Origin: Spirochaetia bacterium
GTDB lineage: Bacteria; Spirochaetota; Spirochaetia; CADAEX01
DNA length: 64,000 bases
Direction of reading: 5' to 3'
Assembly: GCA_963668545.1 (NCBI GenBank)
Contig: OY764868.1
Coordinates: forward strand, 1,426,065 to 1,490,064
A program made the position numbers and the translations under genes. This document shows, one piece after another, positions 6,362 to 43,601 of the stretch (its first letter is position 1; the number at the start of each line of letters is the position of its first letter). Below the pieces are notes generated by a model. It saw only the letters and a list, made by a program, of their open reading frames with translations, made no database searches and was not told the DNA's origin.

Positions 6362-7606
6362 TCAGCAAAGTTCCTTTATTATGCCTGACAGCCTTTCAAC
6401 AGCCTTGTTTATTGTATCAGTATCAGCCATTGTGTAGTTCAGCCTCATTGTCTCGATACCTTTATCAGGATCTGTAAAAAAGAATTTCCCGGGAACAAAT
6501 GCCACATTATTCTTAATTGCCTTGTGATAAAGATCCATCATATTGAAATTTTCAGGACCCGAAACCCACAGAAACATTCCCCCGTCAGATTTTGCTGTTT
6601 TAAATGATTCAGGCATATTCCTTCTGAGGGCTTCAATCATGGCATCCTGTTTCGGCCTGTACAGGGATATGATTTCAGGCAGATGTCTTGCAAGGTGTCC
6701 CCCTGAAATATATTCTGAAGCGAGAGCCTGGTTAAAGGTACTTGTATGCAGGTCCACCCCCTGTTTGACAAGGACAAGCCATTTTCTTATCACGTCAGGG
6801 GCAGTGAAAAAACCTGTTCTCAGTCCCGGTGCAAATACTTTGGAAAGTGTGCCTGAATAAATGACATTATCAGGAGCAAATACAGCAATCGGTGGAAGCG
6901 GCTCTCCGCTGTACCTCAATGAACTGTAGGGATCATCCTCAAGAAGAAGCGTGTTATTTCTTATAATTATTTCAGCTATTTTTTTTCTTCTCTCAAGAGA
7001 AATTGATCTTCCTGTGGGATTCTGGAATGTTGGTATGAGATATACGAATTTTATTGTATTATTTGCAAGCACTTCTTCCAGAGATTCAGGGATTACACCG
7101 TTATCGTCTGTCTCAAGGCATATATATTCAGGCTGATAGGGGTTGAAAGCTGAAATTGCCCCAAGATAGGTTGGAGATTCAACCGCTATTTTGTCACCTT
7201 TTGATATAAGAATTTTTCCTGCAGCATCAAGCAGCCCCTGAGACCCGCTGGTGATACAGATTTTATCAGCATCTGTTTTAATACCCCTTTCTTCAAGAAG
7301 GGAAACAAGGGATTCCCTGAGAGGCATAAATCCTTCTGTACAGTCATACTGGAGAGCTGATGAGCTGTATTTTCTCAGAACAGTATCGGTAAGTTCGTTT
7401 ATTATATCCATAGGGAAACTTTCCGGAGAAGGAATCCCCCCTGCAAGGGATATCATGCCGGGCTGTGATACCACCTTGAGTATCTCTCTTATGGCATTTG
7501 CTCCCATGATTTCTGTTCTTTCAGCAAGAAGTTTTTTAAAATCCATATCAAGCTCCTGATAAATAATATTGACATATTGAAAATAATAGATGCTGTTCAA
7601 TAACAA
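6362..7606 (-). CDS. PLP-dependent aminotransferase, class I/II fold (AAT/LysN-like)
   Basis: PLP-lysine context GTLSKVFAPGLRTGF and an N-terminal aminotransferase signature. The true start is probably the internal MDFKKLL at about 7546. Confidence 0.8.
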   Translation of the reverse strand: MLLNSIYYFQYVNIIYQELDMDFKKLLAERTEIMGANAIREILKVVSQPGMISLAGGIPSPESFPMDIINELTDTVLRKYSSSALQYDCTEGFMPLRESLVSLLEERGIKTDADKICITSGSQGLLDAAGKILISKGDKIAVESPTYLGAISAFNPYQPEYICLETDDNGVIPESLEEVLANNTIKFVYLIPTFQNPTGRSISLERRKKIAEIIIRNNTLLLEDDPYSSLRYSGEPLPPIAVFAPDNVIYSGTLSKVFAPGLRTGFFTAPDVIRKWLVLVKQGVDLHTSTFNQALASEYISGGHLARHLPEIISLYRPKQDAMIEALRRNMPESFKTAKSDGGMFLWVSGPENFNMMDLYHKAIKNNVAFVPGKFFFTDPDKGIETMRLNYTMADTDTINKAVERLSGIIKELC

Positions 7607-7657
7607 TAACAGATACAGAATATTGATTTTATAACCATAACAGTTTAGCCTTAAAAC

Positions 7658-9115
7658 ATGAATATGAAAAAAGAAAAAAAGTTCCGTTACGAAGAGATTG
7701 CAGAATATATTACTTATGCAATCGAGGATGGAACAATAAAGTTCGGAAGCAGGGTTCCATCCCTGCGGGAAATAAGCAGAAGATTCAGATGTTCAATATC
7801 TGTAGTTATGCAGGCGTATGAGGTGCTTGAAAAAAGGGGAAAGATTCATGCTGTTGAAAAGTCGGGATTTTTTGCTTCTCAACCTTTTACCAATCCTGTT
7901 CCTTCAACTGATACCGGTACATACTCACTGAGGTCGGAAGAGGCTAAACCGCTCAGCATTATAGGAAAAATAGTTGATGCGAGCAATGACAGGACAATTG
8001 TACCTCTCGGGGCGGGAATTCCCCATGAAAGTCTTCTCCCTGTAGGAGCAATAAAACAGTCACTTAACCGTGTCCTGAGAGAAAATCCGCTTCTGCTTAA
8101 TCAGTATTCTGATGAAGCAGGGTATCACAGCCTCAGGTGTGAAATATGCAGAATACTGCTTAACAGGGGGGTGAATGCAAACCCTGATGATATTCTGATC
8201 ACAAACGGCTGTACTGAAGCTCTCTCCCTTGCTGTAGCGAGCTCTACATCTCCCGGTGATACAGTTGCAATTGAGAGCCCTGTTTTCATGGGTGCAATTC
8301 AGATACTTAAGGAACTGGGGAGAAGAATAATAACAGTTCCGACATCTGCAGACAGCGGAATGGATCTCGATTATCTTGAAATGGCTGTAAAAAAATCAGA
8401 TGTCAGGGCTGTCATGATGACTGCCGCATTTCAGAACCCTCTGGGATTTGTCATGCCTGAGGAAAAAAGAAAAAGGGCTGTTGAGCTTGCTGAAAAATAC
8501 AGTATCATAATTATTGAAGACGATTTGTACAGCGACTGTTCCCACAACTTTACAGCAGAACGTCCTGTCAAAAGTTTTGACAGGACGGGGCATGTGATAT
8601 ACTGCTCCTCTTTTTCAAAGACATTGAGCCCGGGACTAAGGATAGGATGGATGATGGGGGGGATACATCACAGGAAATGCAGGACTATGAAAATTACACA
8701 GAATCTCGGAGGAAGCCCTGTTCTGCAGGCCGCCCTGGCTGATTTTCTCAAAAACGGACGATATTTGAATCATGTCAAAAAATTCCAGAAAAGTATTTCA
8801 AGGCAGGCACTTGAAATGAAGATGCTGCTTTCAAAGTATCTCCCGGATGATACAGCCATATCCACCCCGTGCGGGGGATTCTTTTTCTGGCTTGAAATCA
8901 ATGGAGATATCGATACTGTTGAGCTTTTCAGTAAAGCGCTGGAGGAAAAAATAAGTATTGCCCCGGGACAGGTTTTCGGTAATGGTGAGAGATTTAAAAA
9001 CTGTCTCAGAATAAGTTTCGCATCACCTGTTACAGATGAATTAAGAAGTGGAATTATTAAACTCGGTAATATTATAACTGATATGAAGCAGGGTAATATG
9101 AGAAGAATCGGCTAA
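7658..9115 (+). CDS. MocR/GabR-family transcriptional regulator (GntR wHTH fused to aminotransferase-like domain)
   Basis: 485 aa. N-terminal GntR-type wHTH (SLREISRRFRCSISVVMQAYEVLEKRG) plus a PLP fold with SFSKTLSPGLRIGW. Divergent from the aminotransferase gene. Confidence 0.8.
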   Translation: MNMKKEKKFRYEEIAEYITYAIEDGTIKFGSRVPSLREISRRFRCSISVVMQAYEVLEKRGKIHAVEKSGFFASQPFTNPVPSTDTGTYSLRSEEAKPLSIIGKIVDASNDRTIVPLGAGIPHESLLPVGAIKQSLNRVLRENPLLLNQYSDEAGYHSLRCEICRILLNRGVNANPDDILITNGCTEALSLAVASSTSPGDTVAIESPVFMGAIQILKELGRRIITVPTSADSGMDLDYLEMAVKKSDVRAVMMTAAFQNPLGFVMPEEKRKRAVELAEKYSIIIIEDDLYSDCSHNFTAERPVKSFDRTGHVIYCSSFSKTLSPGLRIGWMMGGIHHRKCRTMKITQNLGGSPVLQAALADFLKNGRYLNHVKKFQKSISRQALEMKMLLSKYLPDDTAISTPCGGFFFWLEINGDIDTVELFSKALEEKISIAPGQVFGNGERFKNCLRISFASPVTDELRSGIIKLGNIITDMKQGNMRRIG

Positions 9116-9122
9116 TTACTTA

Positions 9123-9929
9123 TCAGATATTTCCTTCATCATAGAAATACTGGCCTGTATAAACATATTCAGGTGCAGCTGTTATAAAAGCTTCATTTTT
9201 AATCTGGTCCCATTCTGCAAAAGCCTTTGTATTATAGAAATTTACAAGAAGGGAGTTTTCATAACCGTTCAGAACAGATGCAATTGCACCTGCTGATAAA
9301 GTCAGCGAATTGTCTGTATTCATCCTGTTTTTCCAGGCTGTTATACTGATTATGTCAGGAGAAAGAGGTTTTACAAAAACAGGCTGGCAGAGGGAAAGGG
9401 TTTCTGATTTCATTATTTCCTTGTGCATCTTTTTAAGGAACTCCCTCGGCTTGTTCTCCGGGAAAAAAACTATTCCTGTTTTACCGATTTTCACCCTGCT
9501 GAATCTGTAAGTGAAATTGTTGTATATCAGGTTTTCAGTATTGCCAGTATCAATTTCCGGTTCTCCTGTCTTTATCCTGAAATTCCTGCTGTCTATGGCT
9601 CTGAGAGTATATTCCCTGTTGTTGTTGATTATAATTATATCTGAATTGTCTGTAGAAACAGTATCATAAATATATCTTGATGCTGCAATGGATGAATCAG
9701 AAGAATAGTCATGAAAAGAACCGTCGGGAGAAAAAGTCAGTATTTCCGTGCAGTTATTATTATGTTTCGTAATAAATATAATTCCATTAGCACCGGCTCC
9801 TGTATGCCTGTCGCAGATTTTTACCGCAATGTCTGAGAAAACGGAATGATCCGGCAGCTTTTCATCTCTGAAATCAGCAAGCAGAAGATCATTCCGTAAT
9901 ATATGAAGTTTGAAAAAGTTTATTTCCAA
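9123..9929 (-). CDS. diaminopimelate epimerase-like protein with both catalytic cysteines replaced by serine
   Basis: 268 aa. N-terminus FFKLHILRNDLLLAD parallels the DapF FSKMHGLGNDFMVVD, and DRHTGAGANG parallels DRHLGVGFDQ. Positions aligned to DapF Cys73 and Cys217 read S (SSDSSIAAS; LTLSAGAIAS). Confidence 0.6.
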   Translation of the reverse strand: MEINFFKLHILRNDLLLADFRDEKLPDHSVFSDIAVKICDRHTGAGANGIIFITKHNNNCTEILTFSPDGSFHDYSSDSSIAASRYIYDTVSTDNSDIIIINNNREYTLRAIDSRNFRIKTGEPEIDTGNTENLIYNNFTYRFSRVKIGKTGIVFFPENKPREFLKKMHKEIMKSETLSLCQPVFVKPLSPDIISITAWKNRMNTDNSLTLSAGAIASVLNGYENSLLVNFYNTKAFAEWDQIKNEAFITAAPEYVYTGQYFYDEGNI

Positions 9930-9931
9930 TT

Positions 9932-11272
9932 TTACTTCTCAAAAAACTCTTTATGGAGGTTGATAATTGTATTGTCTATTTCATTCTGATCCAGAACCAT
10001 GGAGAGGTTTACATCAGAAGATCCCAGCGAAATCATTTTAATGACAGCAGGGGAAAGTGTGGCAAAAATTCTCGAGATAAGAGAAGAATCCTTCCATATA
10101 TTTTTTCCAACAAGACAGATAATTCCGCATCCGGATTCAACTGTTGTTTTTCCTATCATTTCAAGCTCTGATTTGATTGAATTCAGGTTTTTTGTATCTT
10201 CGATTGTCATTGATACAGAAACCTCTGATGTTGAAATAAGATCAACAGGTGTCTGGTATTTGTTGAAAATTGAAAATATTCTGGAGAGGAAACCGTATGC
10301 ATTCAGCATTCTTGAAGAAGTGATGTTGATCAGTGTTATGTTTTTCTTCCCTGCAATTCCAGTAAGTCCTGATGAAGCAGCATCTTTGATAATTCTTGTT
10401 CCGGGAGCATCGGGATTCCTTGTATTTTTTACAACTACCGGTATCCTTTTTTCAACCGCCGGCTGTATTGTTGACGGGTGTACAACCTTTGCCCCGAAAA
10501 AAGCAAGTTCGGCAGCTTCGATATAGCTTATTGTTGTCATTGTTTTTGCACCTTTGACAAGCCTGGGGTCAGTTGTAAGGATTCCGTCAACATCTGTCCA
10601 TATCTGTACTTCTTCAGCATTAAGTGCTGACCCGTAGATTGTAGCTGTATAGTCGGAACCGCCTCTTCCAAGGGTTGTGGTAGAACCGCTTTCAGTTGAA
10701 CTGATAAAACCCTGCGCAATTATCAGCTTGTCAGATTCAGGCTTAACCATTTCCCTTATTATGTTGTCAGTAAGAGGAAAAATGGGAACTGCAGCTGAGT
10801 AGTTGTCATCAGTTTTTATTATATCCCTTGAATCAAGAAGCTCTGCCCTGATTCCCCTTTCAACAGCTCTGTGATATATGAGTGCAGTTGAGAGTCTCTC
10901 TCCGAATGATAAAAGAGTGTCTCTGCTTTTGAGCGTGCATTCCTGAAGGAGAAAAAGCCCTCTTGCAAGTGAATACAGCTGTTCAAACATCTCATTGATT
11001 GTTTCAGATGCTTTTTTGAGGTTGTCGCCTGTAAGGAAAGCTTCTGCTGTTTCAAGATGGGATTTTTTGAGGTTTTCAATATTGTTTATTATCCCGTCTT
11101 TGTTTTTGCCTGCAGCAAAATCAGCAATTTCAACAAGTCTGTCTGTTGTTTTTCCCATGGCGGAAGAAATCATCAGCGGTGCTGATTTAATCTGTTTTTC
11201 AGCAATATCAATTGCCTTGTCAATCCATTCGCTGTTCTGGACTGAAGTTCCTCCGAATTTTAATACAATCAT
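9932..11272 (-). CDS. lysC: aspartate kinase
   Basis: 446 aa. N-terminal MIVLKFGGTSV kinase motif and C-terminal ACT-type regulatory domains. Confidence 0.9.
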   Translation of the reverse strand: MIVLKFGGTSVQNSEWIDKAIDIAEKQIKSAPLMISSAMGKTTDRLVEIADFAAGKNKDGIINNIENLKKSHLETAEAFLTGDNLKKASETINEMFEQLYSLARGLFLLQECTLKSRDTLLSFGERLSTALIYHRAVERGIRAELLDSRDIIKTDDNYSAAVPIFPLTDNIIREMVKPESDKLIIAQGFISSTESGSTTTLGRGGSDYTATIYGSALNAEEVQIWTDVDGILTTDPRLVKGAKTMTTISYIEAAELAFFGAKVVHPSTIQPAVEKRIPVVVKNTRNPDAPGTRIIKDAASSGLTGIAGKKNITLINITSSRMLNAYGFLSRIFSIFNKYQTPVDLISTSEVSVSMTIEDTKNLNSIKSELEMIGKTTVESGCGIICLVGKNIWKDSSLISRIFATLSPAVIKMISLGSSDVNLSMVLDQNEIDNTIINLHKEFFEK

Positions 11273-11545
11273 GTTCCTTTCCTGTTCCTGTTTTCATGTA
11301 TCTGATGTTGTTAATCAGCGTTATTGTACAGTATTATTATTTTAATAGAAAGCTTTTAGAAAGCCGGTAAAAATTATAAATAACTGTTCTGATATATAAT
11401 AACACTTCAATGATGCTGATTGATTGTTGCTAACATTAATGAATCATTATGTCAATAAAGCAGAATTTACCATGGTGTCTTAAAATATTATCTATGATAT
11501 GCTAAAATATATAAAAGTTGATAAACTTGATTATGGAGAAATATT

Positions 11546-12370: not shown

Positions 12371-14767
12371 ATGAAAGCATCAGAAAAATTCTCAGCGCCT
12401 GTTATACAGCAGATGCGGAAAGCTGTTTCAGATACAGGGGGAAATGAAGTAATGTTTACAGGCCGGAGCGGAGACAGCGGCCTGATTGAACATATAGAAA
12501 CAGCAGCCCGGGGAAACGAGAATTCTGTTCCTGCACTTGAAGGATTTGTAGACAGGGGGGATGTTGTTATTCATAACCATCCCGGAGGAAACCTTAGCCC
12601 AAGTGCTGCAGATTTGAGAATAGCATCAATACTGGGAAATCAGGGGATAGGTTTTTATATTATCAATAATGAGGTCACTGAAGTTTATGCAGTGGCTGAA
12701 ACTGTTGCTGAAAGGATAGTCCCTTTAAATACAGATGAAATCAAATCACACCTGGAACCTGGCGGGTCTTTATCAGGAATCTTTGAAAAGTACGAAGTAA
12801 GGCCGTCCCAGATTGAGATGCTTTGCGATGTTGCTGATGCAATTAACAATGAGGAAATCATAATTGCAGAAGCAGGCACCGGGGTCGGAAAATCGCTTGC
12901 TTATCTTATTCCTGCATTCCAGTGGGTTATTAATAATAATGACAGGATAGTAATATCAACAGGGACAATAAACCTTCAGCACCAGCTTATTGAAAAAGAT
13001 ATTCCTCTTGTCAGAAAAATGCTTAAGACAGATAAAAAGGCTGCCCTTGTAAAAGGAAGGGGCAATTATGTCTGCATGAGAAAATATCTGGAAAAACTGA
13101 ATGAAACTTCCCTTTTCAATGAAACAGACAGGGAACTGATGCTTATAAAGGAATGGGTTGAGACAACAGATACAGGAGATAAGTCTGACTTGAGTTTTCT
13201 TCCCGACCATGCACTGTGGGGAGATATTGCTTCCGAATCAGATTACTGTCTCGGGCTGCACTGTCCGTACCGGGAAAAGTGTTTTGTGATAAAATCAAGG
13301 AAAAGAGCTGCCGCGGCACAGATACTTGTTGTAAATCACCATATACTCTTTTCAGATATATCAGCAAGAAGTGCAGGGGGAGGTTTCAACGGTACAGCTG
13401 TCCTTCCCGGGTTCAGCAGAATTGTATTTGATGAAGCACATAATATGGAAAATGCTGCCACCTCATTTTATTCTCCGACACTGTCCCGGGGTATGATGTT
13501 TAAGACTATTACAAAAATATACAGAAGAAAAAAGGGGCGGATATCAGGTATATATGTGAGCCTTAAAAACAGTGAAGGGGCTGAAGATAAAATCGAAGAG
13601 ATACCTTCACTGACAGCTGAGGCTGTCAGTGAATTCGAGCTTCTGGAAAAGGAGGCTGAAGATCTTCTCAAGGGATCATATAACCTGAGGATAGATCATG
13701 AAGAAAAATTTGATAATCTGCTTTCCAGAACAGCATCTCTTAAAAGTCATCTTTCAAAAATACATATGATTATTGATGATATTACACAGGGAATGGATTT
13801 TTCCCCTGAAGATGATGCCGGGGTTTATGAAATAATTCTGATAAAAAACAAGCTTCAGGGGCTTGTCTCAACCTGTGAAAAACTTCTCGATACTGATGAC
13901 AACTATATACCGTGGTTTGAAAAATCAAAAAGAATCTTTTTCTATGTTACACCAATTGATATTAGCAGGATACTTCAGGATACTCTTTACAGCAAAGTCA
14001 AATCAATAGTATTTACCTCTGCAACACTCAGTATAAGTTCAAAATTCAGTTTCTGGAAAAAAAGGGTGGGGCTGGATTCTGAAATGTTTCCTGTCACAGA
14101 GAATATCTATAAATCCCCTTTCAATTATGAAAAGAATGTGCTTCTGGGGATCCCCCAGGATCTTCCTGATCCCTCAGATGAAGAATACACGGAAAAACTT
14201 TCACAGTTTATCTATGATTCACTGCTGATATCTGAAGGTAAGGGACTTGTCCTTTTTACATCATATACAATGCTGATGAAAGTATATGAAAGTATTAGGG
14301 ACAGACTTGTTGAAAACAAGATCATGGTTTACAGACAGGGGGAAGATGACCGTTTCAGGCTGCTGAGATCTTTTAACAGTGACAGGAACAGCGTGCTGCT
14401 TGCAACAGATTCATTCTGGGAAGGGGTGGACAGTCCGGGAGATACTCTTAAAAATCTTATTATATGCAGACTCCCTTTCAGGGTTCCTTCTGATCCTGTC
14501 ATTAAGGCAAGAATGGACAGGATTGCTGAAAACGGTGGCAACCCCTTTATGGATTTTTCTCTTCCTGAAGCGGTCATCAAGCTCAAGCAGGGATTCGGAA
14601 GACTTATGAGGGCTAAAGATGACAGAGGTGTTGTGCAGATAACTGATAACAGAATACTCAGGAAACAGTACGGTTCAATTTTTCTTAAGTCTCTTCCTGA
14701 AGCATCAAGATATTTCGGAACAGCGGAAAATCTTCACTCCAAAATCGAGGATTTTTTATACAGCTGA
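12371..14767 (+). CDS. dinG: DinG-family Fe-S (Rad3/XPD-like) helicase with N-terminal RadC-like JAB/JAMM domain
   Basis: 798 aa. Residues ~1-115 carry a JAMM motif H-N-H-P-x7-S-x2-D (VIHNHPGGNLSPSAADLRIA). Motif I AEAGTGVGKSLAYL follows. Four Cys of the Fe-S domain are present (CMRKY...CLGLHCPYREKC), then DEAH-like FDEAHN and C-terminal helicase motifs. Confidence 0.8.
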   Translation: MKASEKFSAPVIQQMRKAVSDTGGNEVMFTGRSGDSGLIEHIETAARGNENSVPALEGFVDRGDVVIHNHPGGNLSPSAADLRIASILGNQGIGFYIINNEVTEVYAVAETVAERIVPLNTDEIKSHLEPGGSLSGIFEKYEVRPSQIEMLCDVADAINNEEIIIAEAGTGVGKSLAYLIPAFQWVINNNDRIVISTGTINLQHQLIEKDIPLVRKMLKTDKKAALVKGRGNYVCMRKYLEKLNETSLFNETDRELMLIKEWVETTDTGDKSDLSFLPDHALWGDIASESDYCLGLHCPYREKCFVIKSRKRAAAAQILVVNHHILFSDISARSAGGGFNGTAVLPGFSRIVFDEAHNMENAATSFYSPTLSRGMMFKTITKIYRRKKGRISGIYVSLKNSEGAEDKIEEIPSLTAEAVSEFELLEKEAEDLLKGSYNLRIDHEEKFDNLLSRTASLKSHLSKIHMIIDDITQGMDFSPEDDAGVYEIILIKNKLQGLVSTCEKLLDTDDNYIPWFEKSKRIFFYVTPIDISRILQDTLYSKVKSIVFTSATLSISSKFSFWKKRVGLDSEMFPVTENIYKSPFNYEKNVLLGIPQDLPDPSDEEYTEKLSQFIYDSLLISEGKGLVLFTSYTMLMKVYESIRDRLVENKIMVYRQGEDDRFRLLRSFNSDRNSVLLATDSFWEGVDSPGDTLKNLIICRLPFRVPSDPVIKARMDRIAENGGNPFMDFSLPEAVIKLKQGFGRLMRAKDDRGVVQITDNRILRKQYGSIFLKSLPEASRYFGTAENLHSKIEDFLYS

Positions 14768-20544: not shown

Positions 20545-21237
20545 TTAATATGTTATGTAACCAAGCCATACAGGCTTGCTGTAGATATTATATACATTGT
20601 CATCTTTGCCGTATGCAAAAACATACATTGAAAGAGCAAGTTGTCCTGATGATCTGTCAGAATCACCAGAAACATGATCAGCCGGTATAAAAGTTTTATA
20701 TTCAGTTTTTCCGGAAGTTGAATTATACTGTGTAATATTTCTTCTAAGGGTTCTATCAGAATAACCTGAGTATTCAACTCTTGGAGCTGTATCAGAAGAA
20801 ACCTCATCAAAATATACTGTAAGTGTAAAGGATGTATCCCTGTCTGAATAATCAACAGGAATCATCGGATAAGTTGTGGTTTCCTCTGTTGTGAGAACTG
20901 TGTTTAATCTTCTATACCCTACATTTTTAAGATCATCAGGTTCAGGCTCTGATGTGTTGAATATTTTTTTATCATCATCTGCAATTTCAGAATGACTGTT
21001 ATAGTATTTATAGTAAATCTCGTAACCCCTGAATACTTCAGGATCATTATCTGATCTGTTGTATATTAAAGCTGAACTGGGAATACCCGGTTCAAAAGTG
21101 GTTACATTGGGAGCTGACAGATACGGAGATGTATAAAGACCGCAGGATGACGTAAATATTGTAATGAGTATAAATATTTTTAAATGTAAGAAAAAATTAC
21201 GGGGTATCATACCCTCCCTTGACATCAAGAAGCTCAT
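20545..21237 (-). CDS. hypothetical lipoprotein
   Basis: 230 aa. N-terminal hydrophobic segment ending in SSCG (lipobox-like), then a Tyr/Ser/Asp-rich domain. The 5' end overlaps the cyclase 3' end. Confidence 0.45.
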   Translation of the reverse strand: MSFLMSREGMIPRNFFLHLKIFILITIFTSSCGLYTSPYLSAPNVTTFEPGIPSSALIYNRSDNDPEVFRGYEIYYKYYNSHSEIADDDKKIFNTSEPEPDDLKNVGYRRLNTVLTTEETTTYPMIPVDYSDRDTSFTLTVYFDEVSSDTAPRVEYSGYSDRTLRRNITQYNSTSGKTEYKTFIPADHVSGDSDRSSGQLALSMYVFAYGKDDNVYNIYSKPVWLGYITY

Positions 21238-23587
21238 AGATGAGTACAGGTTTGTTTTTACCCTTAACCCTTATATTGTCAAGTTCCCTTACAACAACAT
21301 GTTCATTTACAAGTGCATGAGTGAACTCACTGATTATGACATTTGTTTTATACTGCTTGTTTGTACCTTCAAGCCTTGCACCGAGGTTTACATTATCACC
21401 CATAAGTGTGTAGTTCATTCTACCCATGGATCCCATGTTTCCTACTGTCATTACACCGGAATTAAGACCGATACCGATATTAATCCTTTTTTCTTCAGGC
21501 CATCCTTCATTCAGCTTGTGAAGTGCATCCATCTGTTTTAAGGCGCACTTGCATGCGAATAATGCATGTTCCTCCTGAGGAATCGGGGCACCCCAGAAGC
21601 ACATTATTTCATCCCCTACATACTTATCAAGTGTACCGTTAAACTCAAGGATTATATCTGTCATTGCTGTCAGATAAATATTAAGATGGTTTACAAGTTC
21701 CTGAGGTGTCATGGTTTCTGAAAGGGTTGTAAATCCCCTGATATCTGAAAAAAGAACTGTAAGGTTTTTGTCAACACCACCGAGTTCGGGAGGATTATCG
21801 AGAATCTGATCAACTACTGCAGGACTTACATATTTACCGAACATGTTCTTAATCCTTTTCTTGTCCTTTTCCTCTGTCATAACCCTGTAGATTACAATAG
21901 ATATGAAAGTAAGCGATCCTCCCAACGCAGGAGACGGGAAATCAAGTACTATGTTGAAATTGTCAAATATGATACTAGTTGTTATGAAATAGGCCGCTAT
22001 TGAAACAATTGAAAAAAGTGCTGCCCAGAGGGTTGATAGCCTTGAAGTAACTATAGCCGTAATAAAAACAAGAATAAACAGTAATAAAACATTTACCCAT
22101 TTGTCCACTTCTGTAATAAATTTATTCATTATAATGGTGTTCAGTGAGTTTGCATGTATCTCGACACCATACATGAGTCCGTAAGGTGTTGTTTTTTCAT
22201 CTGCTGCAATACCTCTTGCGAACGGGCCTGTCATGAGGATCTTGTTACCGACAGCTTTTGTTTTCGGCCATTTTGAAGGATCAGGACCAGGGGATTTCGC
22301 AGCATATCCTGAATAGGACCTGATTGGAAATGTCTGGTGTCCTCCGGGGTCTGCAGTTGAAGGATTTCCCATGAAATTTATAAGCATCTGTCCATGTTCA
22401 TCTATCGGGATAATAATATCATCAAGAACCTTTTCAACTCCCGGTTTCTTTAAAGAGCCGTCTTTATTATATTTAGGCTGTTTAACAGTTATCCTGTAAG
22501 GTTCCCATGACTGCTTTTCCGTATTGTAGACTTCAGGTGACGGTATTTTTATGTATTCCCCTACTTTCACCTCAAGATCTTCAGGCGATTTGTTGAAATA
22601 CTGCATAGCAAGAGAAAGAGTTATTGAAGGAACAAATGTGTCTTTGTATTTTTTTACAATAAAGTAATAACTGTCCTGCCCTTCTGCAGTTTTTGATTTA
22701 ATTGGAGGAGAATTTGTCTGTATAGTATTTTTAAGATCTGTAATCTGTTCCTCTGTAAGCGGATACTTTATCGGGTGATCAATTCCATTAATATCAGTCC
22801 ATCCCAGTCTTTCAAAGTTTTTGTGATCAATGGTAAAGGATGGAGAAAGTTCTTCCAGATTAATTACATCCATAAGAATGGACGATTTTGAAATTAGACC
22901 CTGTCTTCTGTAGACCTTGTCGAAGTCTTCCCTGAAATTTGCATGCCCGTAACCCCTGCATGCTCTTGCAAGAGGCTGAAGAGGCGGCTGAAGACCTGTA
23001 TATGAGCTGATTGTATGCCAGTTCCCTTCGATATTTGTTATTCTGCCGTAGTTGTCATAAAGAAGTTCCTGTCTTTTTACATAATCGTCACGGATGGCAT
23101 CTGACGGTGGTACTTCGTCCAGGACTGTTTCAAGAAAAACATTTCCGTTTTCCTTGATAGCTTCAACAAGAAGAGCATCATCGTAGGCTTTTCTTTCATC
23201 AGGTTCAATGAAAAAAACGTCAATAAATAATGCCCTTTCCCGTTCATTCTGGTTCTGTATCCTGGAAAAGGACTTTATAAGGTCTGCATGTCTGTATCTC
23301 GGAAAAGGCCATTTTCCGAATTTGTTGAGACTTCTGAAATCTATACCGACTATCATTATATCCGGTGATATATTCGGATTCTGTACAGACTGAGTTACAC
23401 CTTCCTGGATATAGGTTTTCTGTGAGACATTTTTAAGGTAAAAATTGACATCAAGCATTTTCAACTTAAGCTTATTGGTAATATCAGTAAAGTTATCAAC
23501 ACCGATTATAAGGAAAAATATAAAAAGTGCTATTATTATACCGAATATCTTTGTTTCAAATACTTTTATAGATCCCTTTTTACCCAC
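21197..23587 (-). CDS. CHASE2-sensor class III adenylate/guanylate cyclase
   Basis: 796 aa. N-terminal TM, large periplasmic region, TM cluster, then cyclase homology domain (LTVLFSDIRGFTTLSE...KYVGDEIMCFWGAP...GIGLNSGVMTVGNMGS). Confidence 0.85.
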   Translation of the reverse strand: MGKKGSIKVFETKIFGIIIALFIFFLIIGVDNFTDITNKLKLKMLDVNFYLKNVSQKTYIQEGVTQSVQNPNISPDIMIVGIDFRSLNKFGKWPFPRYRHADLIKSFSRIQNQNERERALFIDVFFIEPDERKAYDDALLVEAIKENGNVFLETVLDEVPPSDAIRDDYVKRQELLYDNYGRITNIEGNWHTISSYTGLQPPLQPLARACRGYGHANFREDFDKVYRRQGLISKSSILMDVINLEELSPSFTIDHKNFERLGWTDINGIDHPIKYPLTEEQITDLKNTIQTNSPPIKSKTAEGQDSYYFIVKKYKDTFVPSITLSLAMQYFNKSPEDLEVKVGEYIKIPSPEVYNTEKQSWEPYRITVKQPKYNKDGSLKKPGVEKVLDDIIIPIDEHGQMLINFMGNPSTADPGGHQTFPIRSYSGYAAKSPGPDPSKWPKTKAVGNKILMTGPFARGIAADEKTTPYGLMYGVEIHANSLNTIIMNKFITEVDKWVNVLLLFILVFITAIVTSRLSTLWAALFSIVSIAAYFITTSIIFDNFNIVLDFPSPALGGSLTFISIVIYRVMTEEKDKKRIKNMFGKYVSPAVVDQILDNPPELGGVDKNLTVLFSDIRGFTTLSETMTPQELVNHLNIYLTAMTDIILEFNGTLDKYVGDEIMCFWGAPIPQEEHALFACKCALKQMDALHKLNEGWPEEKRINIGIGLNSGVMTVGNMGSMGRMNYTLMGDNVNLGARLEGTNKQYKTNVIISEFTHALVNEHVVVRELDNIRVKGKNKPVLIYELLDVKGGYDTP

Positions 23588-23602: not shown

Positions 23603-24298
23603 TTATTTTATCAATTCAGAAGCTTTCAGGTAAATTATACGGTCTCTGGCAAAATTTGTCCAACCACTATTTGAATAATTGTCGACGATCTCTGAATAGC
23701 TTTTCAGAGCTTTATCATAGTTTTCCGAAGATTCAGAAAGCCTTCCTATTGAAAAAAGAATTCCCGGAATATCAGGATAGGAATCTGAATATTTATCTTT
23801 TACAGATTCATATGTTTTAAGAGCTTCATCATAATTACCAAGTTCCTCGCTGCAGACACCGCTGTTGTAAAGAGCAATAGGAGCAAGATAAGTATCGGAA
23901 TACCTTTCTGCATATGCCTTGAATGACTCAGAGGATTTCTCATATTCCTTTCTTGCAAAATAGATATTGCCTTTCATGAAAACAGCCCTCTGTCCTGCAT
24001 AAAAGGAAGGATATTCCTTTATAAGTGAATCAAGAGAGTCGATTATTTTTTTAATATCATCATCTGACAGATCGCCGTCTTTTTCTGAAAGAAGATTGGA
24101 ATAATCTGTCTGGATTTTTTCAATTGCAAGTGCAGATTCTTCATTTTTGCCGGATTTGAAGTTAATTGAAACAGCTATACTTGAAACTGCAATTACAATA
24201 AGGACTGAAAAGATTATAATAATTTTACTGTAGTTTGAAAGAAAACTGTTCAGGCTGTTTAATATTTTATCTTTTCCTGTAATTTCATCCTGGTGCAT
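23603..24298 (-). CDS. membrane-anchored TPR-repeat protein
   Basis: 231 aa. One N-terminal TM helix (IIIFSVLIVIAVSSIAVSI) followed by TPR-like repeats (AGQRAVFMKGNIYFARKEYEKS...). Confidence 0.55.
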   Translation of the reverse strand: MHQDEITGKDKILNSLNSFLSNYSKIIIIFSVLIVIAVSSIAVSINFKSGKNEESALAIEKIQTDYSNLLSEKDGDLSDDDIKKIIDSLDSLIKEYPSFYAGQRAVFMKGNIYFARKEYEKSSESFKAYAERYSDTYLAPIALYNSGVCSEELGNYDEALKTYESVKDKYSDSYPDIPGILFSIGRLSESSENYDKALKSYSEIVDNYSNSGWTNFARDRIIYLKASELIK

Positions 24299-25309
24299 TT
24301 AATACTCCTTGTTGTTAAATATATCAAGCTCTTTTATAAGCCTGGATAAGTATGTTCTCTGGATACCTAGCATATCTGCAGTTTTCATCTGGTTCCAGTT
24401 ATTGTACTTCAACGCTTTTATAATATAATTTTTTTTGAAATTTGTAACAGCTTTTTTTAGCGGTATTACAGTTTTTTTTAAATCGCTGCAGGAATCAAGT
24501 ATTATATCGCTTTCTTTTAAAGATGTATCAGCAGATAATACTGCTCTGTAAAGTGTGTTGAAAAGCTCCCTTACATTGCCGGGCCAGTCATATGATAATA
24601 GCTTGTCCATTGCAGAACTGTCTATTGTCCTTTCAGAGAATCCGGTTTTATTCAGAAAGTATTCTGCTAGATCAGGTATATCTTCCCTGTGATCCCTCAG
24701 GGGGGGTATTTCAAGGTTTAGAACATTTATCCTGTAAAGAAGCTCTTTTTTGAAATTTCCATCTGAAATTTCCTTATTGATATTTCTGTTTGTCGCTGCA
24801 ATAATTCTGACATCAATCTTCAGGGGATGTTCTGACCCTATCGGATATATTTCCCCATTTTCAATAACCCGCAATAAACTGGACTGTATATTCAACGGCA
24901 TTTCAAAAAGTTCATCTAGAAATATTGTGCCCTTATCAGCAGTCTGAAACCTTCCTTTTCTATCACGGGAGGCATCGGTAAAGGATCCCTTGAGATGTCC
25001 GAAAAGTTCTGTTTCAAAAAGATTTTCAGGTATTGAAGCACAGTTTATTTTTATGAAAGGTCTGTTTTTTCTTACGCTTTCAGAATGGATATAATCAGCA
25101 AAAATATCTTTTCCTGAACCGCTTTCTCCTGTAATAAGTACAGGAGCATCAGAAAGTGCAATTTTCTTTGCTTTGAGTAATGTTTTTTGTATTGTATTTC
25201 CGGAACCTGTTATTTTCTGATCTGTATAAAAAACAGGCAGCACCCGGTCAGGCTTGTCTGATGCTGAATTAGTGCTGCCTTTATCATTGAGATGATTATT
25301 AGTTGTCAC
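24299..25309 (-). CDS. sigma54-interacting AAA+ activator lacking an N-terminal sensory/receiver domain (PspF/HrpS-like architecture)
   Basis: 336 aa. Walker A GESGSGKD, GSFTDA in place of GAFTGA (GHLKGSFTDA), Walker B/R-finger region, and C-terminal HTH (KTADMLGIQRTYLSRLIKEL). Only about 35 aa precede the AAA+ core. Confidence 0.8.
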   Translation of the reverse strand: MTTNNHLNDKGSTNSASDKPDRVLPVFYTDQKITGSGNTIQKTLLKAKKIALSDAPVLITGESGSGKDIFADYIHSESVRKNRPFIKINCASIPENLFETELFGHLKGSFTDASRDRKGRFQTADKGTIFLDELFEMPLNIQSSLLRVIENGEIYPIGSEHPLKIDVRIIAATNRNINKEISDGNFKKELLYRINVLNLEIPPLRDHREDIPDLAEYFLNKTGFSERTIDSSAMDKLLSYDWPGNVRELFNTLYRAVLSADTSLKESDIILDSCSDLKKTVIPLKKAVTNFKKNYIIKALKYNNWNQMKTADMLGIQRTYLSRLIKELDIFNNKEY

Positions 25310-36285: not shown

Positions 36286-38979
36286 ATGAGTTCTAAAACT
36301 ATTGATAAGATTAGTCATCTGCTTAATGAAGAAAAATGGACAAGGGCAACAATTAAAAGTTATTCAATCACAAATTTCAAGGATCTTGATGAGCTGATTG
36401 ATGAGGTAATGGATGATGAAAATCAGCAGGAAATTGTTGATATATGCGAGGAGCACCTGCATCATACAAAGAACAGTATCATAGCTCTTTATATATCCGG
36501 AATTATTTCACTTTCAAGGCACATGATTGATGATTCAAACCTGATGATTCTGATAAACATTTTTTCAGACAATCATAAATGGAATGTTGTAGAGTACCTG
36601 TGTGAAAGGATACTGGACTTCGGTGAAAACAAGTTCGCACTCAGGACACTGGCGGAATGTTATGATAATGAAAATGAAGAGGAAAAAAAATACGAGATAT
36701 GGGAAAGACTTGTAAGAATTGATTATGACGAGACAGAAATAGTAAGGCAGCTTGCTGAAAAATATGAGCAAGAGGGTAACTCCGAAAAAGCTGTTGAATA
36801 CTATAAAAAAGCGGTTCACAGATATGTAAACAAAAAACTCTTTGCAAATGTCAAGGAAATCTGGACAAAGCTTCTTGAAATCTGTCCGGATGATATTGAT
36901 TTTTATTATCACCTAAATAAGAAAATTGCAAAAAATATCAGCACTGAAAGGGCTTCACAGCTGCTTGAAGAACTGTATGAATACTATAAAGAAAGAAAAG
37001 AATGGGATACAGCCATTGATATCCTTAAAAATATTTTGTTTTTTGATACAAAGGATTCAGATACCAGAAGTGAAATTATATACTGTTTCAGACAGAAATA
37101 CAGTTATCACAGCCAGGTTGAAGAATATATCAAGGTATCAAATCTTGCACAGAAATGGAGAAATATCAACGAGGCAATTTCAGATTTTGAAAAGCATATT
37201 TCCTTTGATGCGGGAAACTTTGTATTCCACAGGTCATGGGGTATTGGACGGATCAAGTTAATTAAAGGTGATAATGTGGTTATTGATTTTATCAAAAAGC
37301 GGGACCATAAAATGTCGCTTAAAATGGCTGTAAATGCACTTACAATGCTCGGCAGGGAGCATATCTGGGTAATCAAAAGTACTACAAAGAAAGATGAACT
37401 CAGAAAAATGATAAAATCTGATATTGCCTGGACTCTCAAAACTATTATCAGAAGTTTTGACAATGCGGTTGACATGAAAAAAATCAAGTCAGAACTTGTT
37501 CCTGGTATTCTTACCCCAGGCGAATGGACAACATGGAGCAATGAGGCGCGAAAGATACTTAAAACTGACTCGGATTTCGGAAATCTTCCTGATAAAGTTG
37601 ATTTTTTCGTTGTAAGGGATACCCCTATCTCATACGAAGAAAAGACATTCAACAAGTTTAAGGCAGAAAACAACTTTTTTGCCAAAATAAAGACTTTTCA
37701 GGATTTCATGGATGAAATTTCTGTTGAATCAGATTATTTCCCTGAAATGTTTCTGTACTTTACAAACTACCTTAAATCATATTCATCTGTTAATGAATTT
37801 GTAATAAGCAGTTATCTTATCATGGAAATGGTTATCAACAGGTTCCCCCATATGAATCCCAATATGCAGATGGAATTCCGTGAATTATTTGAGGAAATAG
37901 ATGACCTGACAGGTCTGTTTCAAAAAATCAATGACAGTGAACTTAGAAAACTCTTTCTTGATAAGATCAAGAAAGAAGTTGAAACATGGCCGGAGATATT
38001 TGCTGAGCTTTTCCCTGTATTTCTCAACAGATATATAATTGATTCACTCAACAAGGCAGGAAAAAAGGAATCCATCAAAAAACTTGTTATGAAAATCCAG
38101 GAAGACTACAAGGATTACCGTGAGGCATTTATTTGGATTTACAGGAACAGTGAAGATTATCCTTTCTTTCAGAAATATTTCTATGATGAAGAAAAAGTTC
38201 TGGTCAACTTGATTCATCTGCTGGATATTACATACAGAGAGATTATAAATAAAAGAAATGTAAGCAACAACAAGAAGATCAACAGGCAGATATCAATATT
38301 CCTTTTCAAGGAAAACAGACTTGAAAACTTTCTAAAGGAAGCTGACAGGGAAACAGTAATCAGAATGATATCTCTTATTGATGATGTTCAGGGTCTTGAT
38401 CCCGCTATGGTTGTCGGTCTTAAAAAACTTGTCAAAGGGAAATATGCCGATATTGCATTTATCGGAGAAACAGAAGAAATTGAGACTTTCTCCAGGGGCG
38501 GAATCATTGTTACAGAAGATGCTCTTAACAGGAAAAAACTTGAGCTTAAGCATATACTTGAAGTTGAAATACCTCTTAACTCCAAGGAGATCGGAGCTGC
38601 AATAGAGCTCGGTGACCTCAAGGAAAATGCCGAATACAAGGCAGGAAAGGAAAAACAGGAACTTCTGAACATTTCAGTCGGAAAGCTGAAGGACGAGATT
38701 GAAAAATGCAAGGTTTTTGATCCTTCAACAGCTGATACAAAAAAAATATCGTTTGGGAATGTTGTGGAACTTAAAAACAAAGAAACCGGAAAGAAGGAAG
38801 TCTATACAATACTTGGACCCTGGGAATCTTCACCTGAAAAAAATATTATTTCATACATGGCTCCGTTCGGAAGCGCTCTTCTTAATGCGAAAACAGGGGA
38901 AGAGCTGAAATTTACTATCAATGACAGAAACTATGAGTATGAAGTAGGGAAAATAAAAATGGCTGATATATTCAAATAA
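36286..38979 (+). CDS. greA: transcription elongation factor GreA, long spirochete-type form (~900 aa)
   Basis: The C-terminal ~160 aa match GreA (LKENAEYKAGKEKQELLN...; FGNVVELKNKETGKKEVYTILGPWES). The ~740-aa N-terminal extension resembles the ~900-aa GreA known in Borrelia. Confidence 0.75.
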   Translation: MSSKTIDKISHLLNEEKWTRATIKSYSITNFKDLDELIDEVMDDENQQEIVDICEEHLHHTKNSIIALYISGIISLSRHMIDDSNLMILINIFSDNHKWNVVEYLCERILDFGENKFALRTLAECYDNENEEEKKYEIWERLVRIDYDETEIVRQLAEKYEQEGNSEKAVEYYKKAVHRYVNKKLFANVKEIWTKLLEICPDDIDFYYHLNKKIAKNISTERASQLLEELYEYYKERKEWDTAIDILKNILFFDTKDSDTRSEIIYCFRQKYSYHSQVEEYIKVSNLAQKWRNINEAISDFEKHISFDAGNFVFHRSWGIGRIKLIKGDNVVIDFIKKRDHKMSLKMAVNALTMLGREHIWVIKSTTKKDELRKMIKSDIAWTLKTIIRSFDNAVDMKKIKSELVPGILTPGEWTTWSNEARKILKTDSDFGNLPDKVDFFVVRDTPISYEEKTFNKFKAENNFFAKIKTFQDFMDEISVESDYFPEMFLYFTNYLKSYSSVNEFVISSYLIMEMVINRFPHMNPNMQMEFRELFEEIDDLTGLFQKINDSELRKLFLDKIKKEVETWPEIFAELFPVFLNRYIIDSLNKAGKKESIKKLVMKIQEDYKDYREAFIWIYRNSEDYPFFQKYFYDEEKVLVNLIHLLDITYREIINKRNVSNNKKINRQISIFLFKENRLENFLKEADRETVIRMISLIDDVQGLDPAMVVGLKKLVKGKYADIAFIGETEEIETFSRGGIIVTEDALNRKKLELKHILEVEIPLNSKEIGAAIELGDLKENAEYKAGKEKQELLNISVGKLKDEIEKCKVFDPSTADTKKISFGNVVELKNKETGKKEVYTILGPWESSPEKNIISYMAPFGSALLNAKTGEELKFTINDRNYEYEVGKIKMADIFK

Positions 38980-42041: not shown

Positions 42042-43601
42042 TTATGATCTCCTTTTAAAAAACATAAAATCAAGTCTGAAAAGTTTATAAGATGTCAGTA
42101 TAATTATCGAAAACAATGAAGTAATTATTATAAAATATAATAAAAGAGAAAGTGAAAATCCATATTTCCACATGGAACCGAAATAACGTCCAGTTATCAG
42201 AATGAGAGCAGCTGCAGGGATAATTGAAAGTATTATCCTGATAAAATCGGAAAAAAGATGGAAAAGCCTGAAATCAGGGTAGGATTTTTTTATATCAATT
42301 ATAATGAAGACAACAATAAGAGTAAAAGATACTGAGTTTGCAACTGCAAGTCCTGTAACTCTGAGAAAGGTTTCTTTAAGCCAGAGAGACAGGGCAATAT
42401 CAAGAATTGAAACAGCAACAGCAAAATAAAAAGGCTTTTTAAAGTTATCAGCTGAATAATAAAAACGCTGGGAGAAATTAAACATGCCGATTGTGAATAG
42501 TCCAGGTGCGTATCCTTTCAGTACGAGAGCAGTGATGTATGTATTTTCACTGCTGAAAAAGCCCCTCTGCATTGCAATTGATATGATTTCGGGACCAAGC
42601 AGAAAAAGAAAAACACCGGAAGGGAGTAGTAGACACATCAGATTTCTCATCCCTGTCTCAACTGTATTCAGAAGGCTGGAAGAATCCCCCAGGGCCCTGA
42701 ATTTGCTCATTCTTGGAAACAGAACAGTTGTAATGGAAGCTGAAAAAATACCGAAAGGAAGCTGCCAGAAGACAAGTGCATAACTTAATGCGGAAGTGCT
42801 TCCTGTATCAAGACCTGAAGCAAATCTTATTGCAATCTGCTGGTTTATTGTGAAGACTGAAGCAGTTGCTGCAACAGGTCCCCAGTTTTTCATTATTTTT
42901 CTGAAATAGGGGCTTTTGAAGCTGAAATCTGGTTTCAGGTCATAACCGAGCCTGTAAAAAAGTGGTAGCTGGAAAAATATCTGGAGAAGCCCACCTGAAA
43001 GTACCCCTGCAGCCATTGAAAAAATGCCGAGTGTTTTATAGAGAGATACTATACTGATAATTACGGAAATAGAAAAAAGCAGAGGTGTAACAGCAGGAAT
43101 AAAAAAATAGCTGTTTGAATTAAGTACTGCCATCATCGCTGCGCTTATACTTATCAACAGTATGTAATTGATAAACCATCTGAAAAGTGAAACTGACAGC
43201 GCGTTGAGATATGGATCATCAAAATCAAGCAGTATTTTTGTAATAAGAAAATCTGAAAAGATTATTGATAATATACAGACAGGAACAAGAACCAGGGCCT
43301 GAAATGTAAGAATATTTCTGACAAGTCTGACAGTTGCATCACTGTTTTTTTCCTTTACAAGGGATTCCGAGAGTACAGGTATGAAGGATGTAGAAAGGGC
43401 TCCTTCAGCCATAAGCTTTCTCAGGTTGTTGGGTATTGAAAAAACTGAATTAAGAACATCTGCTTCACCTGAGGCACCGAAAAATGCCCCTATCAGTGCG
43501 ATTCTTATGAATCCGAGTATTCTTGAAAACAGAGTACATATCATTACAGCCATAGCTGAAACAGAAGTTTTCCTTGAAGATTCCGAGCTGTCAACCTGCA
43601 T
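42042..43601 (-). CDS. murJ: lipid II flippase MurJ/MviN
   Basis: 519 aa with about 14 TM helices and the MviN family N-terminus (ALSTSFIPVLSE). Confidence 0.85.
   Translation of the reverse strand: MQVDSSESSRKTSVSAMAVMICTLFSRILGFIRIALIGAFFGASGEADVLNSVFSIPNNLRKLMAEGALSTSFIPVLSESLVKEKNSDATVRLVRNILTFQALVLVPVCILSIIFSDFLITKILLDFDDPYLNALSVSLFRWFINYILLISISAAMMAVLNSNSYFFIPAVTPLLFSISVIISIVSLYKTLGIFSMAAGVLSGGLLQIFFQLPLFYRLGYDLKPDFSFKSPYFRKIMKNWGPVAATASVFTINQQIAIRFASGLDTGSTSALSYALVFWQLPFGIFSASITTVLFPRMSKFRALGDSSSLLNTVETGMRNLMCLLLPSGVFLFLLGPEIISIAMQRGFFSSENTYITALVLKGYAPGLFTIGMFNFSQRFYYSADNFKKPFYFAVAVSILDIALSLWLKETFLRVTGLAVANSVSFTLIVVFIIIDIKKSYPDFRLFHLFSDFIRIILSIIPAAALILITGRYFGSMWKYGFSLSLLLYFIIITSLFSIIILTSYKLFRLDFMFFKRRS

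Follow-up and report, generated by a model that had tools for sequence, protein, structure and literature searches.

A gene for a homologue of diaminopimelate (DAP) epimerase, DapF, lies directly downstream of lysC in a 64-kb stretch of contig OY764868.1 (assembly GCA_963668545.1) from a Spirochaetia bacterium. The whole of this stretch is referred to here as the window. The open reading frame (ORF) of the homologue, which we call pseudo-DapF, has neither of the two catalytic thiols of the epimerase. The features on which this account depends are the following.

9123..9929, minus strand: pseudo-DapF ORF, 268 aa, with a TTG start (9929-9927) and a TGA stop (9125-9123)
9294..9314, minus strand: codons of Asp206-Ser212 (DNSLTLS), the former catalytic site 2, a remodelled C-G-T/S-G loop at the N-terminus of helix 207-220
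9696..9704, minus strand: codons of Ser76-Ser77-Asp78, the former catalytic site 1, opposite Cys73-Gly74-Asn75 of DapF and at the N-terminus of helix 77-90
9888..9893, minus strand: codons of Asn13-Asp14, the surviving 'GND' motif of DapF (Asn11/Asp12)
9930..9931, minus strand: 2-nt spacer between the lysC stop codon (9934-9932) and the TTG start of pseudo-DapF
9932..11272, minus strand: lysC, a monofunctional aspartate kinase of 446 aa with AA_kinase (PF00696) and ACT (PF22468) domains

The lysC product matches TIGR00657 with 353 bits, above the cut-off of 208.7, and scores 449 bits against a cut-off of 455 with NF006570, the model of lysine-sensitive aspartokinase III. This gene is the upstream operon partner of the pseudo-DapF ORF and the synteny is kept in relatives. 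A preliminary description of the locus had proposed that both genes are transcribed together, and this is likely, because only 2 nt separate them, their adjacency is conserved and the junction contains zero terminator-like sites on the minus strand and promoter-like sites no commoner than in shuffled sequence. The 2-nt arrangement also makes translational coupling plausible. An Rfam scan of the 273 nt (11273-11545) that separate lysC from the divergently transcribed purine-nucleoside phosphorylase (PNP) gene detected neither a lysine riboswitch nor any other element, a riboswitch-free leader for lysC although its product resembles lysine-sensitive aspartokinases. Annotation of the window proteins revealed no asd, lysA or dapL within the 64 kb.

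Homology, fold and former catalytic sites of pseudo-DapF

The by-eye assignment of the ORF to the DapF family was borne out by profile and fold searches. TIGR00652 aligned with pseudo-DapF over its full length (E 6e-14), at a score of 52.1 bits that is under the cut-off of 114.65, and PF01678 gave 24.1 bits, also under its gathering score of 34.7; the canonical orthologue P0169 (proteins and loci from relatives are designated by P and L numbers) reached 293.7 bits with TIGR00652. A phmmer search against PDB sequences returned DapFs only (best E 4.8e-11), and hhalign aligned a profile of 11 close family members with one of 20 canonical DapFs over 265 columns (probability 99.9%, E 2.4e-36). From 43 family sequences AlphaFold produced a model (pLDDT 94.3, pTM 0.90) that contains the two pseudo-symmetric alpha/beta domains of the DapF fold and whose top Foldseek matches were all DapF, with E-values to 4.8e-21 and TM-scores of 0.80-0.87 to DapF crystal structures. 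Fold matches to proline racemase, hydroxyproline epimerase/dehydratase and CntK/HisR structures were 8-9 orders of magnitude weaker. An earlier model gave the same fold ranking, with PhzF/YddE/YHI9 structures at about E 1e-7 versus 1e-15 for DapF. Because of the hhalign match, the presence of canonical dapF in the same syntenic slot at two other loci (L031 and L033) and the existence of sequence intermediates, pseudo-DapF shares descent with bona fide dapF and is orthologous to it.

Two other identities were tried and ruled out. PhzF/YddE, which the preliminary description had named as a possible different family, shows no PF02567 match at E up to 1 and a fold far weaker than DapF, so that Pfam and fold searches uphold membership of the DapF family. 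Proline racemase, hydroxyproline epimerase and 3-hydroxyproline dehydratase were rejected for want of a PF05544 match and for fold E-values of 5e-12 or weaker.

What has become of the two thiols? In every alignment made, Cys73-Gly74-Asn75 of DapF is faced by Ser76-Ser77-Asp78. The C-G-T/S-G loop of the second site has been remodelled with a net deletion of two residues, and the counterpart of Cys217 depends on the method, being Asn207, Leu209, Thr210 or Leu211 and never Cys or Ser. Thus, of the original proposal that both catalytic cysteines had been replaced by serine, the loss of both thiols stands and so does a serine (Ser76) at site 1, but the second site has undergone a loop deletion instead. 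Ser212, the residue of LSAGAIA that had been taken for the counterpart of Cys217, pairs in fact with a non-catalytic Cys/Ser of the following 'GAC/GAS' helix. The helices that carry the thiols in DapF start at residues 77 and 207 in both models, directly after Ser76 and Asp206. The sole cysteines of pseudo-DapF (C39, C60 and C181) are all away from both sites. A shifted alignment that hides the catalytic cysteines, a caveat raised at the outset, was ruled out, since four independent aligners and a profile-profile alignment placed no Cys at either site.

It had also been suggested that a Cys-to-Ser change might have brought about a new, dehydratase-like chemistry. This analogy fails because a catalytic serine would not vary among orthologues as Ser76 does: it is among the most variable positions (S/T/Y/I) in close orthologues that are 44-84% identical, and Ser77 varies too. 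Moreover, site 2 is not Ser, the DAP ligands are gone, and the family alignments contain no conserved Cys, Thr or Ser at either catalytic site. The trans-3-hydroxy-L-proline dehydratases (4k7g, 6r76, 7qpo), which have a related pseudo-symmetric fold and a chemistry changed by the swap of one Cys, differ in this respect, since they keep the other Cys, the substrate-binding residues and an invariant replacement residue, whereas pseudo-DapF has lost both thiols together with the ligands and its Ser is unconserved. Their fold match is also weaker (about 5e-12 versus 5e-21 for DapF), and their family PF05544 does not match.

To place the protein in its family, a profile was searched against 1.84 billion representative proteins, which gave 2080 matches at E < 1e-3. 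The 150 best were aligned and comprise about 60 canonical DapFs, about 65 proteins without the catalytic cysteines (Cys-less) and about 29 intermediates. The roughly 65 Cys-less proteins have in common an Asp at the position of Asn75 and a shortened second loop; a further search with a broad family alignment added one extra member among the best 8000 candidates. Fifteen canonical positions were then compared between 56 canonical DapFs and 45 Cys-less members. Twelve of them (N64, C73, G74, N157, P158, H159, N190, E208, R209, C217, G218 and T/S219) are near-invariant in the canonical proteins and all are variable in the Cys-less ones, which keep only N11 and D12 plus a fixed change of N75 to D. 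Within the GND motif, Asn is found in 36 of the 45 Cys-less members and Asp in all of them. Asp78 is likewise present in 45/45, at a position that is Asn in 54/56 canonical DapFs, and the position of Asp206 is D, E or N in about 90% of the Cys-less members.

The residues that we take to be the DAP ligands, from H. influenzae DapF-AziDAP structures, are Asn64, Asn75, Asn157, Asn190, Glu208, Arg209, Gly218 and Ser219, and the invariance of this assumed list was checked in the 56 canonical sequences. Pseudo-DapF has S67, D78, K150 and Q182 at the four asparagine positions, and K200, N201, S208 and L209 at Glu208, Arg209, Gly218 and Ser219. Apart from D78, all these positions vary across the 45 Cys-less members.

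Comparison with the canonical spirochaete DapFs (P0169 and P0167; EC 5.1.1.7) summarises what has been kept and what has been lost. The proteins are alike in fold, length and chromosomal position, and the motifs ME[IV]xFxK, RYxFDSG, IDSxN, SREEI, LNGFxDRE and YVFTGxYYxEE are common to both. All but the first of these define the Cys-less clade and are at the same time present in canonical spirochaete DapFs, so that they represent a scaffold handed down from the ancestor instead of a new active site. Pseudo-DapF has also kept the GND motif and the C-terminal YxxTG region. On the other hand, pseudo-DapF is without Cys73, Cys217, Gly74, Asn64, Asn157-Pro-His, Asn190, Glu208/Arg209 and Gly218/Ser219, its site-2 loop is shorter, Asn75 has become Asp and its scores are below both curated cut-offs.

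Origin of pseudo-DapF in a dismantled lysine operon

Close relatives of pseudo-DapF were found only in metagenome-assembled genomes labelled Spirochaetia. For more distant contexts, metagenome contigs were scanned with a degenerate DNA pattern for IDSxNFRxxLGxP, by which 13 of 16 loci proved to be true members, and individual representatives were also looked up. Every readable context is the same spirochaete block as in the window, in which PPDK, an rpoD-like sigma factor, groES, a DinG/YoaA helicase and PNP form one flank, and the other flank holds a sigma-54 response regulator, a histidine kinase, holB, cvpA and murG. At L031 and L033, where DapF is canonical at 15/15 positions (P0169 and P0167), the slot between them reads asd-lysC-lysA-dapF-aminotransferase. 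The lysA product of this intact operon matches TIGR01048 with 421 bits, above the cut-off, and LL-DAP aminotransferase (DapL) is the best match of the aminotransferase, also with 421 bits. At every locus read with a degenerate dapF (dapF*), lysA is absent from the slot, and the order lysC-dapF* is seen in the window and in L001-L003, L006, L007, L015/L021, L027/L028 and L032. Since the same slot holds the intact operon in L031/L033 and lysA has gone at the degenerate loci, the window gene is an in-situ descendant of the dapF of a dismantled asd-lysC-lysA-dapF-dapL lysine operon.

Arrangements of these genes vary among spirochaetes, as some Treponema genomes have the DAP/lysine genes clustered without dapF and carry dapF elsewhere (PMC4176475). 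A protein search with P0052, the nearest spirochaete DapF of canonical type, which is an indirect and weak test, revealed no canonical dapF of the source genome among 120 listed of 1158 matches.

Two features of the block differ between the window and its relatives. A divergent gene pair at 6362-9115, encoding a GntR-aminotransferase fusion regulator (MocR/PdxR-like, plus strand) and a stand-alone class I/II aminotransferase (minus strand), is inserted between pseudo-DapF and the sigma-54 response regulator. The possibility that this pair represents DapL/DapC remnants was ruled out: the best matches of both proteins are PdxR/MocR-type aminotransferase domains, the DapL models give 64-70 bits, and the pair is not at this position in L002, L006 and L007. 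By the same scores, the stand-alone aminotransferase is nearer to MocR aminotransferase domains than to any DapL or DapC. The other feature is a small DnaJ-domain protein (about 128-156 aa), whose gene comes after dapF or dapF* in the majority of the spirochaete relatives, canonical and degenerate (L008, L011, L013, L014, L017, L020, L023, L024, L027, L028 and L031-L034), and often followed by a Glycos_transf_4 (MraY/WecA-like) gene. L001-L003, L006 and L007, which are close to the window lineage, have lost the DnaJ-domain gene from the slot, as has the window lineage itself.

The decay of the enzyme is graded. TIGR00652 scores descend from 294 bits for P0169 through 217 for P0052, 196 for P0174 and 106 for P0077 to 52 for the window protein, and P0018 and P0066 have no match. 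Among the intermediates, P0174 and P0175 have lost Cys73 and kept Cys217, and P0177 and P0040 have lost Cys217 and kept Cys73. Because intermediates have lost either cysteine first, the Cys-less state seems to have been reached by more than one inactivation route, and a rough neighbour-joining tree is compatible with multiple routes. DapFs that have degenerated in part can still score well: in P0174 (L032) Cys73 is replaced by Phe and Asn75 by Asp, yet it reaches 196 bits against the TIGR00652 cut-off of 114.65, and P0052 (L027/L028), with Lys at Glu208 and Ser-Ile at Gly218-Ser219, reaches 217 bits. P0174 is already named diaminopimelate epimerase in a JGI source.

Loss of the active site went along with a change of evolutionary rate. 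Between the two canonical loci L031 and L033, DapF is 76% identical and LysC 63%; in degenerate pairs the order is reversed, with identities for DapF and LysC of 61 versus 83, 45 versus 74 and 29 versus 57%. In other words, dapF has shifted from one of the slowest-evolving genes of the block to the fastest, and pseudo-DapF evolves about 2-3 times faster than LysC whereas canonical DapF is slower than LysC. Nevertheless, the dN/dS of the pseudo-DapF gene is 0.10 (window versus L001) and 0.18 (window versus L002), next to 0.08-0.09 for lysC and 0.09-0.10 for PNP and DinG, all of these being approximate values as dS is saturated (1.5-1.6) between the compared genomes. The ORF is intact in all of the more than 25 genomes seen, and the full-length, frameshift-free ORFs span 22-84% identity. 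Given the low dN/dS and the intact ORFs across genomes, the gene is under purifying selection and is not a decaying pseudogene.

Possible roles of pseudo-DapF

Why has a DapF without an active site been kept? On balance we think it probable that pseudo-DapF is a catalytically dead DapF, derived from the dismantled lysine operon and retained for a non-catalytic role. It bears both marks of a pseudo-enzyme, in that the catalytic residues of the parent have been lost and an intact predicted fold is maintained by purifying selection, so that the pseudo-enzyme option of the preliminary description is the one we favour. The loss of the thiols and ligands indicates that epimerase activity has most probably disappeared. 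A non-catalytic role is what the exclusion of other explanations, weighed below, points to. In the course of events that we propose, lysA, asd and dapL were lost from the locus in the window lineage and DapF would have stopped working as a diaminopimelate epimerase; the thiols and nearly all DAP ligands went and the rate rose. The two-domain fold is held by purifying selection and would be expressed from the lysC transcript, probably with translational coupling through the weak TTG start. The protein would have no catalytic function and would serve to bind or scaffold other molecules by means of its DapF fold, through surfaces outside the dead cleft. Helix N-caps are preferentially Asp or Asn. 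The only polar residues that have become fixed anew are Asp78 and Asp206, and these most likely cap the N-termini of the helices that once bore the cysteines.

The loss of the epimerase role would be tolerable because the peptidoglycan of the group uses L-ornithine, which is characteristic of Spirochaetaceae (PMC4511686). The preliminary description had already invoked this link, and it remains reasonable background, but the loss of lysA (and usually dapL) at the locus explains the fate of dapF more directly.

The closest precedent for such a role is E. coli DapF, which activates RppH independently of its epimerase activity (PMC6061855). Here the DapF fold binds a protein in a manner that does not depend on the active site (6d13, 6vck; PMC4227774, PMC6061855, PMC6061791), and Foldseek ranked 6d13 and 6vck near the top of its matches to pseudo-DapF (TM-scores of 0.79-0.84). 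However, the E. coli protein doubles as a functional epimerase, and the RppH/Nudix partnership, known from E. coli, is putative for the spirochaete protein. Other DapF homologues have been repurposed as enzymes. HisR/CntK (histidine racemases), PddB (a Dab racemase) and DcsC (an O-ureidoserine racemase) have tasks other than DAP epimerisation (PMC11602996, PMC8225329; 9cr1, 6jis, 7vdy), and 7vdy is a top-5 fold match of pseudo-DapF; yet all of them retain the Cys pair and are active racemases, and pseudo-DapF has neither Cys.

Several observations weigh against the reading of a dead enzyme from a dismantled operon. The invariant Asp78 and the approximately 90% conserved Asp206 (D/E/N) sit exactly where the thiols sat, and the sequence leaves room for an acid/base role of both. 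A dead copy need not have lost the pathway genes at its side: L029/L030, which encode the Cys-less P0077, have the order asd-dapF*-DapL-like, with an aminotransferase 70% identical to that of the intact operon. L009, L020 and L023 keep dapF* without an adjoining lysC, which counts against an obligate partnership with LysC. The partner or ligand is only putative, the neighbour-joining tree of the DapF clade is crude, and the saturation of dS blunts the estimate of selection.

The two aspartates are also the foundation of the rival in which pseudo-DapF is a neofunctionalised enzyme, whose Asp78 and Asp206 carboxylates would replace the thiols as acid/base and catalyse isomerisation, tautomerisation or dehydration of a non-DAP substrate. 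Their conservation, their location at the starts of helices 77-90 and 207-220 and the presence of purifying selection speak in its favour, as does the existence of non-thiol members of the superfamily (PhzF, YddE and hydroxyproline dehydratase), although these are weaker fold matches than DapF. The model for such a mechanism would be PhzF/YddE, which have the same superfold and use carboxylate (Glu/Asp) catalysis with no thiols; but PF02567 does not match pseudo-DapF, the fold match is only about E 1e-7 and synteny shows descent from dapF, not phzF. Beyond the two Asp no new conserved polar set lines the cleft, the remaining conserved motifs come from canonical spirochaete DapF, and the positions of the former ligands vary extremely even among family members that are 44-84% identical. 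The rise in rate and the graded, heterogeneous decay resemble relaxation and not a new optimum, helix N-capping explains the conservation of the Asp residues without catalysis, and the neighbourhoods read show no conserved gene pointing to a new pathway. For these reasons we regard an aspartate-based enzyme as unlikely. A small but real chance is left for a wider proposal, that the Cys-less clade is a new thiol-independent branch of the DapF superfold which relies on Asp78 and Asp206 and acts either as an acid/base isomerase of a new substrate or as a metabolite sensor that links the status of the aspartate pathway to another process; in the latter version the coupling could be, for instance, to RNA turnover, by analogy with E. 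coli DapF-RppH. If either were true, perhaps hundreds of spirochaete proteins, now unannotated or mis-annotated as DapF, would make up a functional family of their own that is new.

The close association with lysC invites the idea that the dead DapF is a regulatory subunit that binds LysC or a pathway metabolite and tunes the flux through the aspartate pathway. The 2-nt gap, the adjacency at all the lysC-dapF* loci listed above and the fact that another Cys-less member adjoins asd would fit. Nonetheless, this adjacency is ancestral, as both genes belonged to the same operon and the deletion of lysA alone made it direct, the gene is kept without lysC alongside at L009, L020 and L023, and the metabolite-binding residues are gone, which makes a LysC subunit improbable. 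The loci without lysC are also difficult to reconcile with a functionless relic that rides on the lysC transcript and awaits deletion. Such a relic would account for the fastest-evolving gene of the neighbourhood, the weak TTG start and the loss of the pathway partners; however, the dN/dS is comparable to that of bona fide neighbours, more than 25 independent genomes, over the whole range of identities given above, carry the ORF at full length and free of frameshifts, and the predicted fold is confident (pLDDT 94), so we hold it very unlikely. Finally, a diaminopimelate epimerase still working in a thiol-independent manner is most unlikely. The gene does stay in aspartate/lysine contexts (lysC, or asd and the DapL-like gene in L029), and the weak and indirect search mentioned above gave no same-genome canonical dapF among 120 listed of 1158 matches. 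Against this, both thiols and the residues that hold both carboxylates and amines of DAP are absent, an Asp at the Asn75 position would be expected to repel the substrate carboxylate, lysA, whose product consumes meso-DAP, is missing from the locus, and the TIGR00652 score is 52 bits against the cut-off of 114.65.

If pseudo-DapF is a dead enzyme under continued selection, as we favour, a catalysis-independent function of the DapF fold would be implied for spirochaetes, as in E. coli DapF-RppH. On this reading pseudo-DapF is a clade-wide pseudo-enzyme in a well-known family, and its value is mainly for annotation and as an example of how pseudo-enzymes originate. Literature searches turned up no account of a DapF that is Cys-less or a pseudo-enzyme. 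The clade ranges from no family match to scores above the TIGR00652 cut-off, so that pipelines will call some members diaminopimelate epimerase and metabolic reconstructions of Spirochaetia will be credited in error with an epimerase step or with the entire DAP/lysine pathway. The locus is also an unusually clean stepwise record of the passage from enzyme to pseudo-enzyme after the dismantling of a pathway. It begins with the intact operon; lysA and dapL then disappear, next either of the thiols and in the end every ligand, accompanied by the measurable shift from slowest- to fastest-evolving gene, while the fold is still selected. For DapF or DapL as targets of antibacterials in spirochaetes (PMC4176475), the findings are of indirect relevance.

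Other features of the window

Some other genes of the window have unusual features. The DinG/YoaA-type helicase of the block (12371-14767, plus strand) matches NF053712 with 579 bits over residues 127-781 and has an extra N-terminal domain of about 125 residues with a JAB/RadC-like 'HNHPGGNLSPSAADL' motif. Its orthologue in L033 gives a faint match to PF04002 (RadC), and the RadC-like/helicase fusion is kept throughout the spirochaete block. At 36286-38979 (plus strand), an 897-aa protein is recognisable only in residues 740-891, which form a complete C-terminal GreA/GreB module, and the N-terminal extension of about 740 residues before it is without Pfam match. Two consecutive ORFs of 230 and 796 aa at 20545-23587 (minus strand) are without NCBIfam match at E <= 1e-5 and lie upstream of two genes, one for a YbgF/CpoB-like tetratricopeptide repeat protein (23603-24298), the other (24299-25309) for a sigma-54 activator of 336 aa that lacks a receiver. 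Finally, genes for the lipopolysaccharide-export permeases LptF and LptG adjoin tgt and murJ (44728-47090 and 42042-43601, both minus strand), which implies an Lpt pathway in the source spirochaete.

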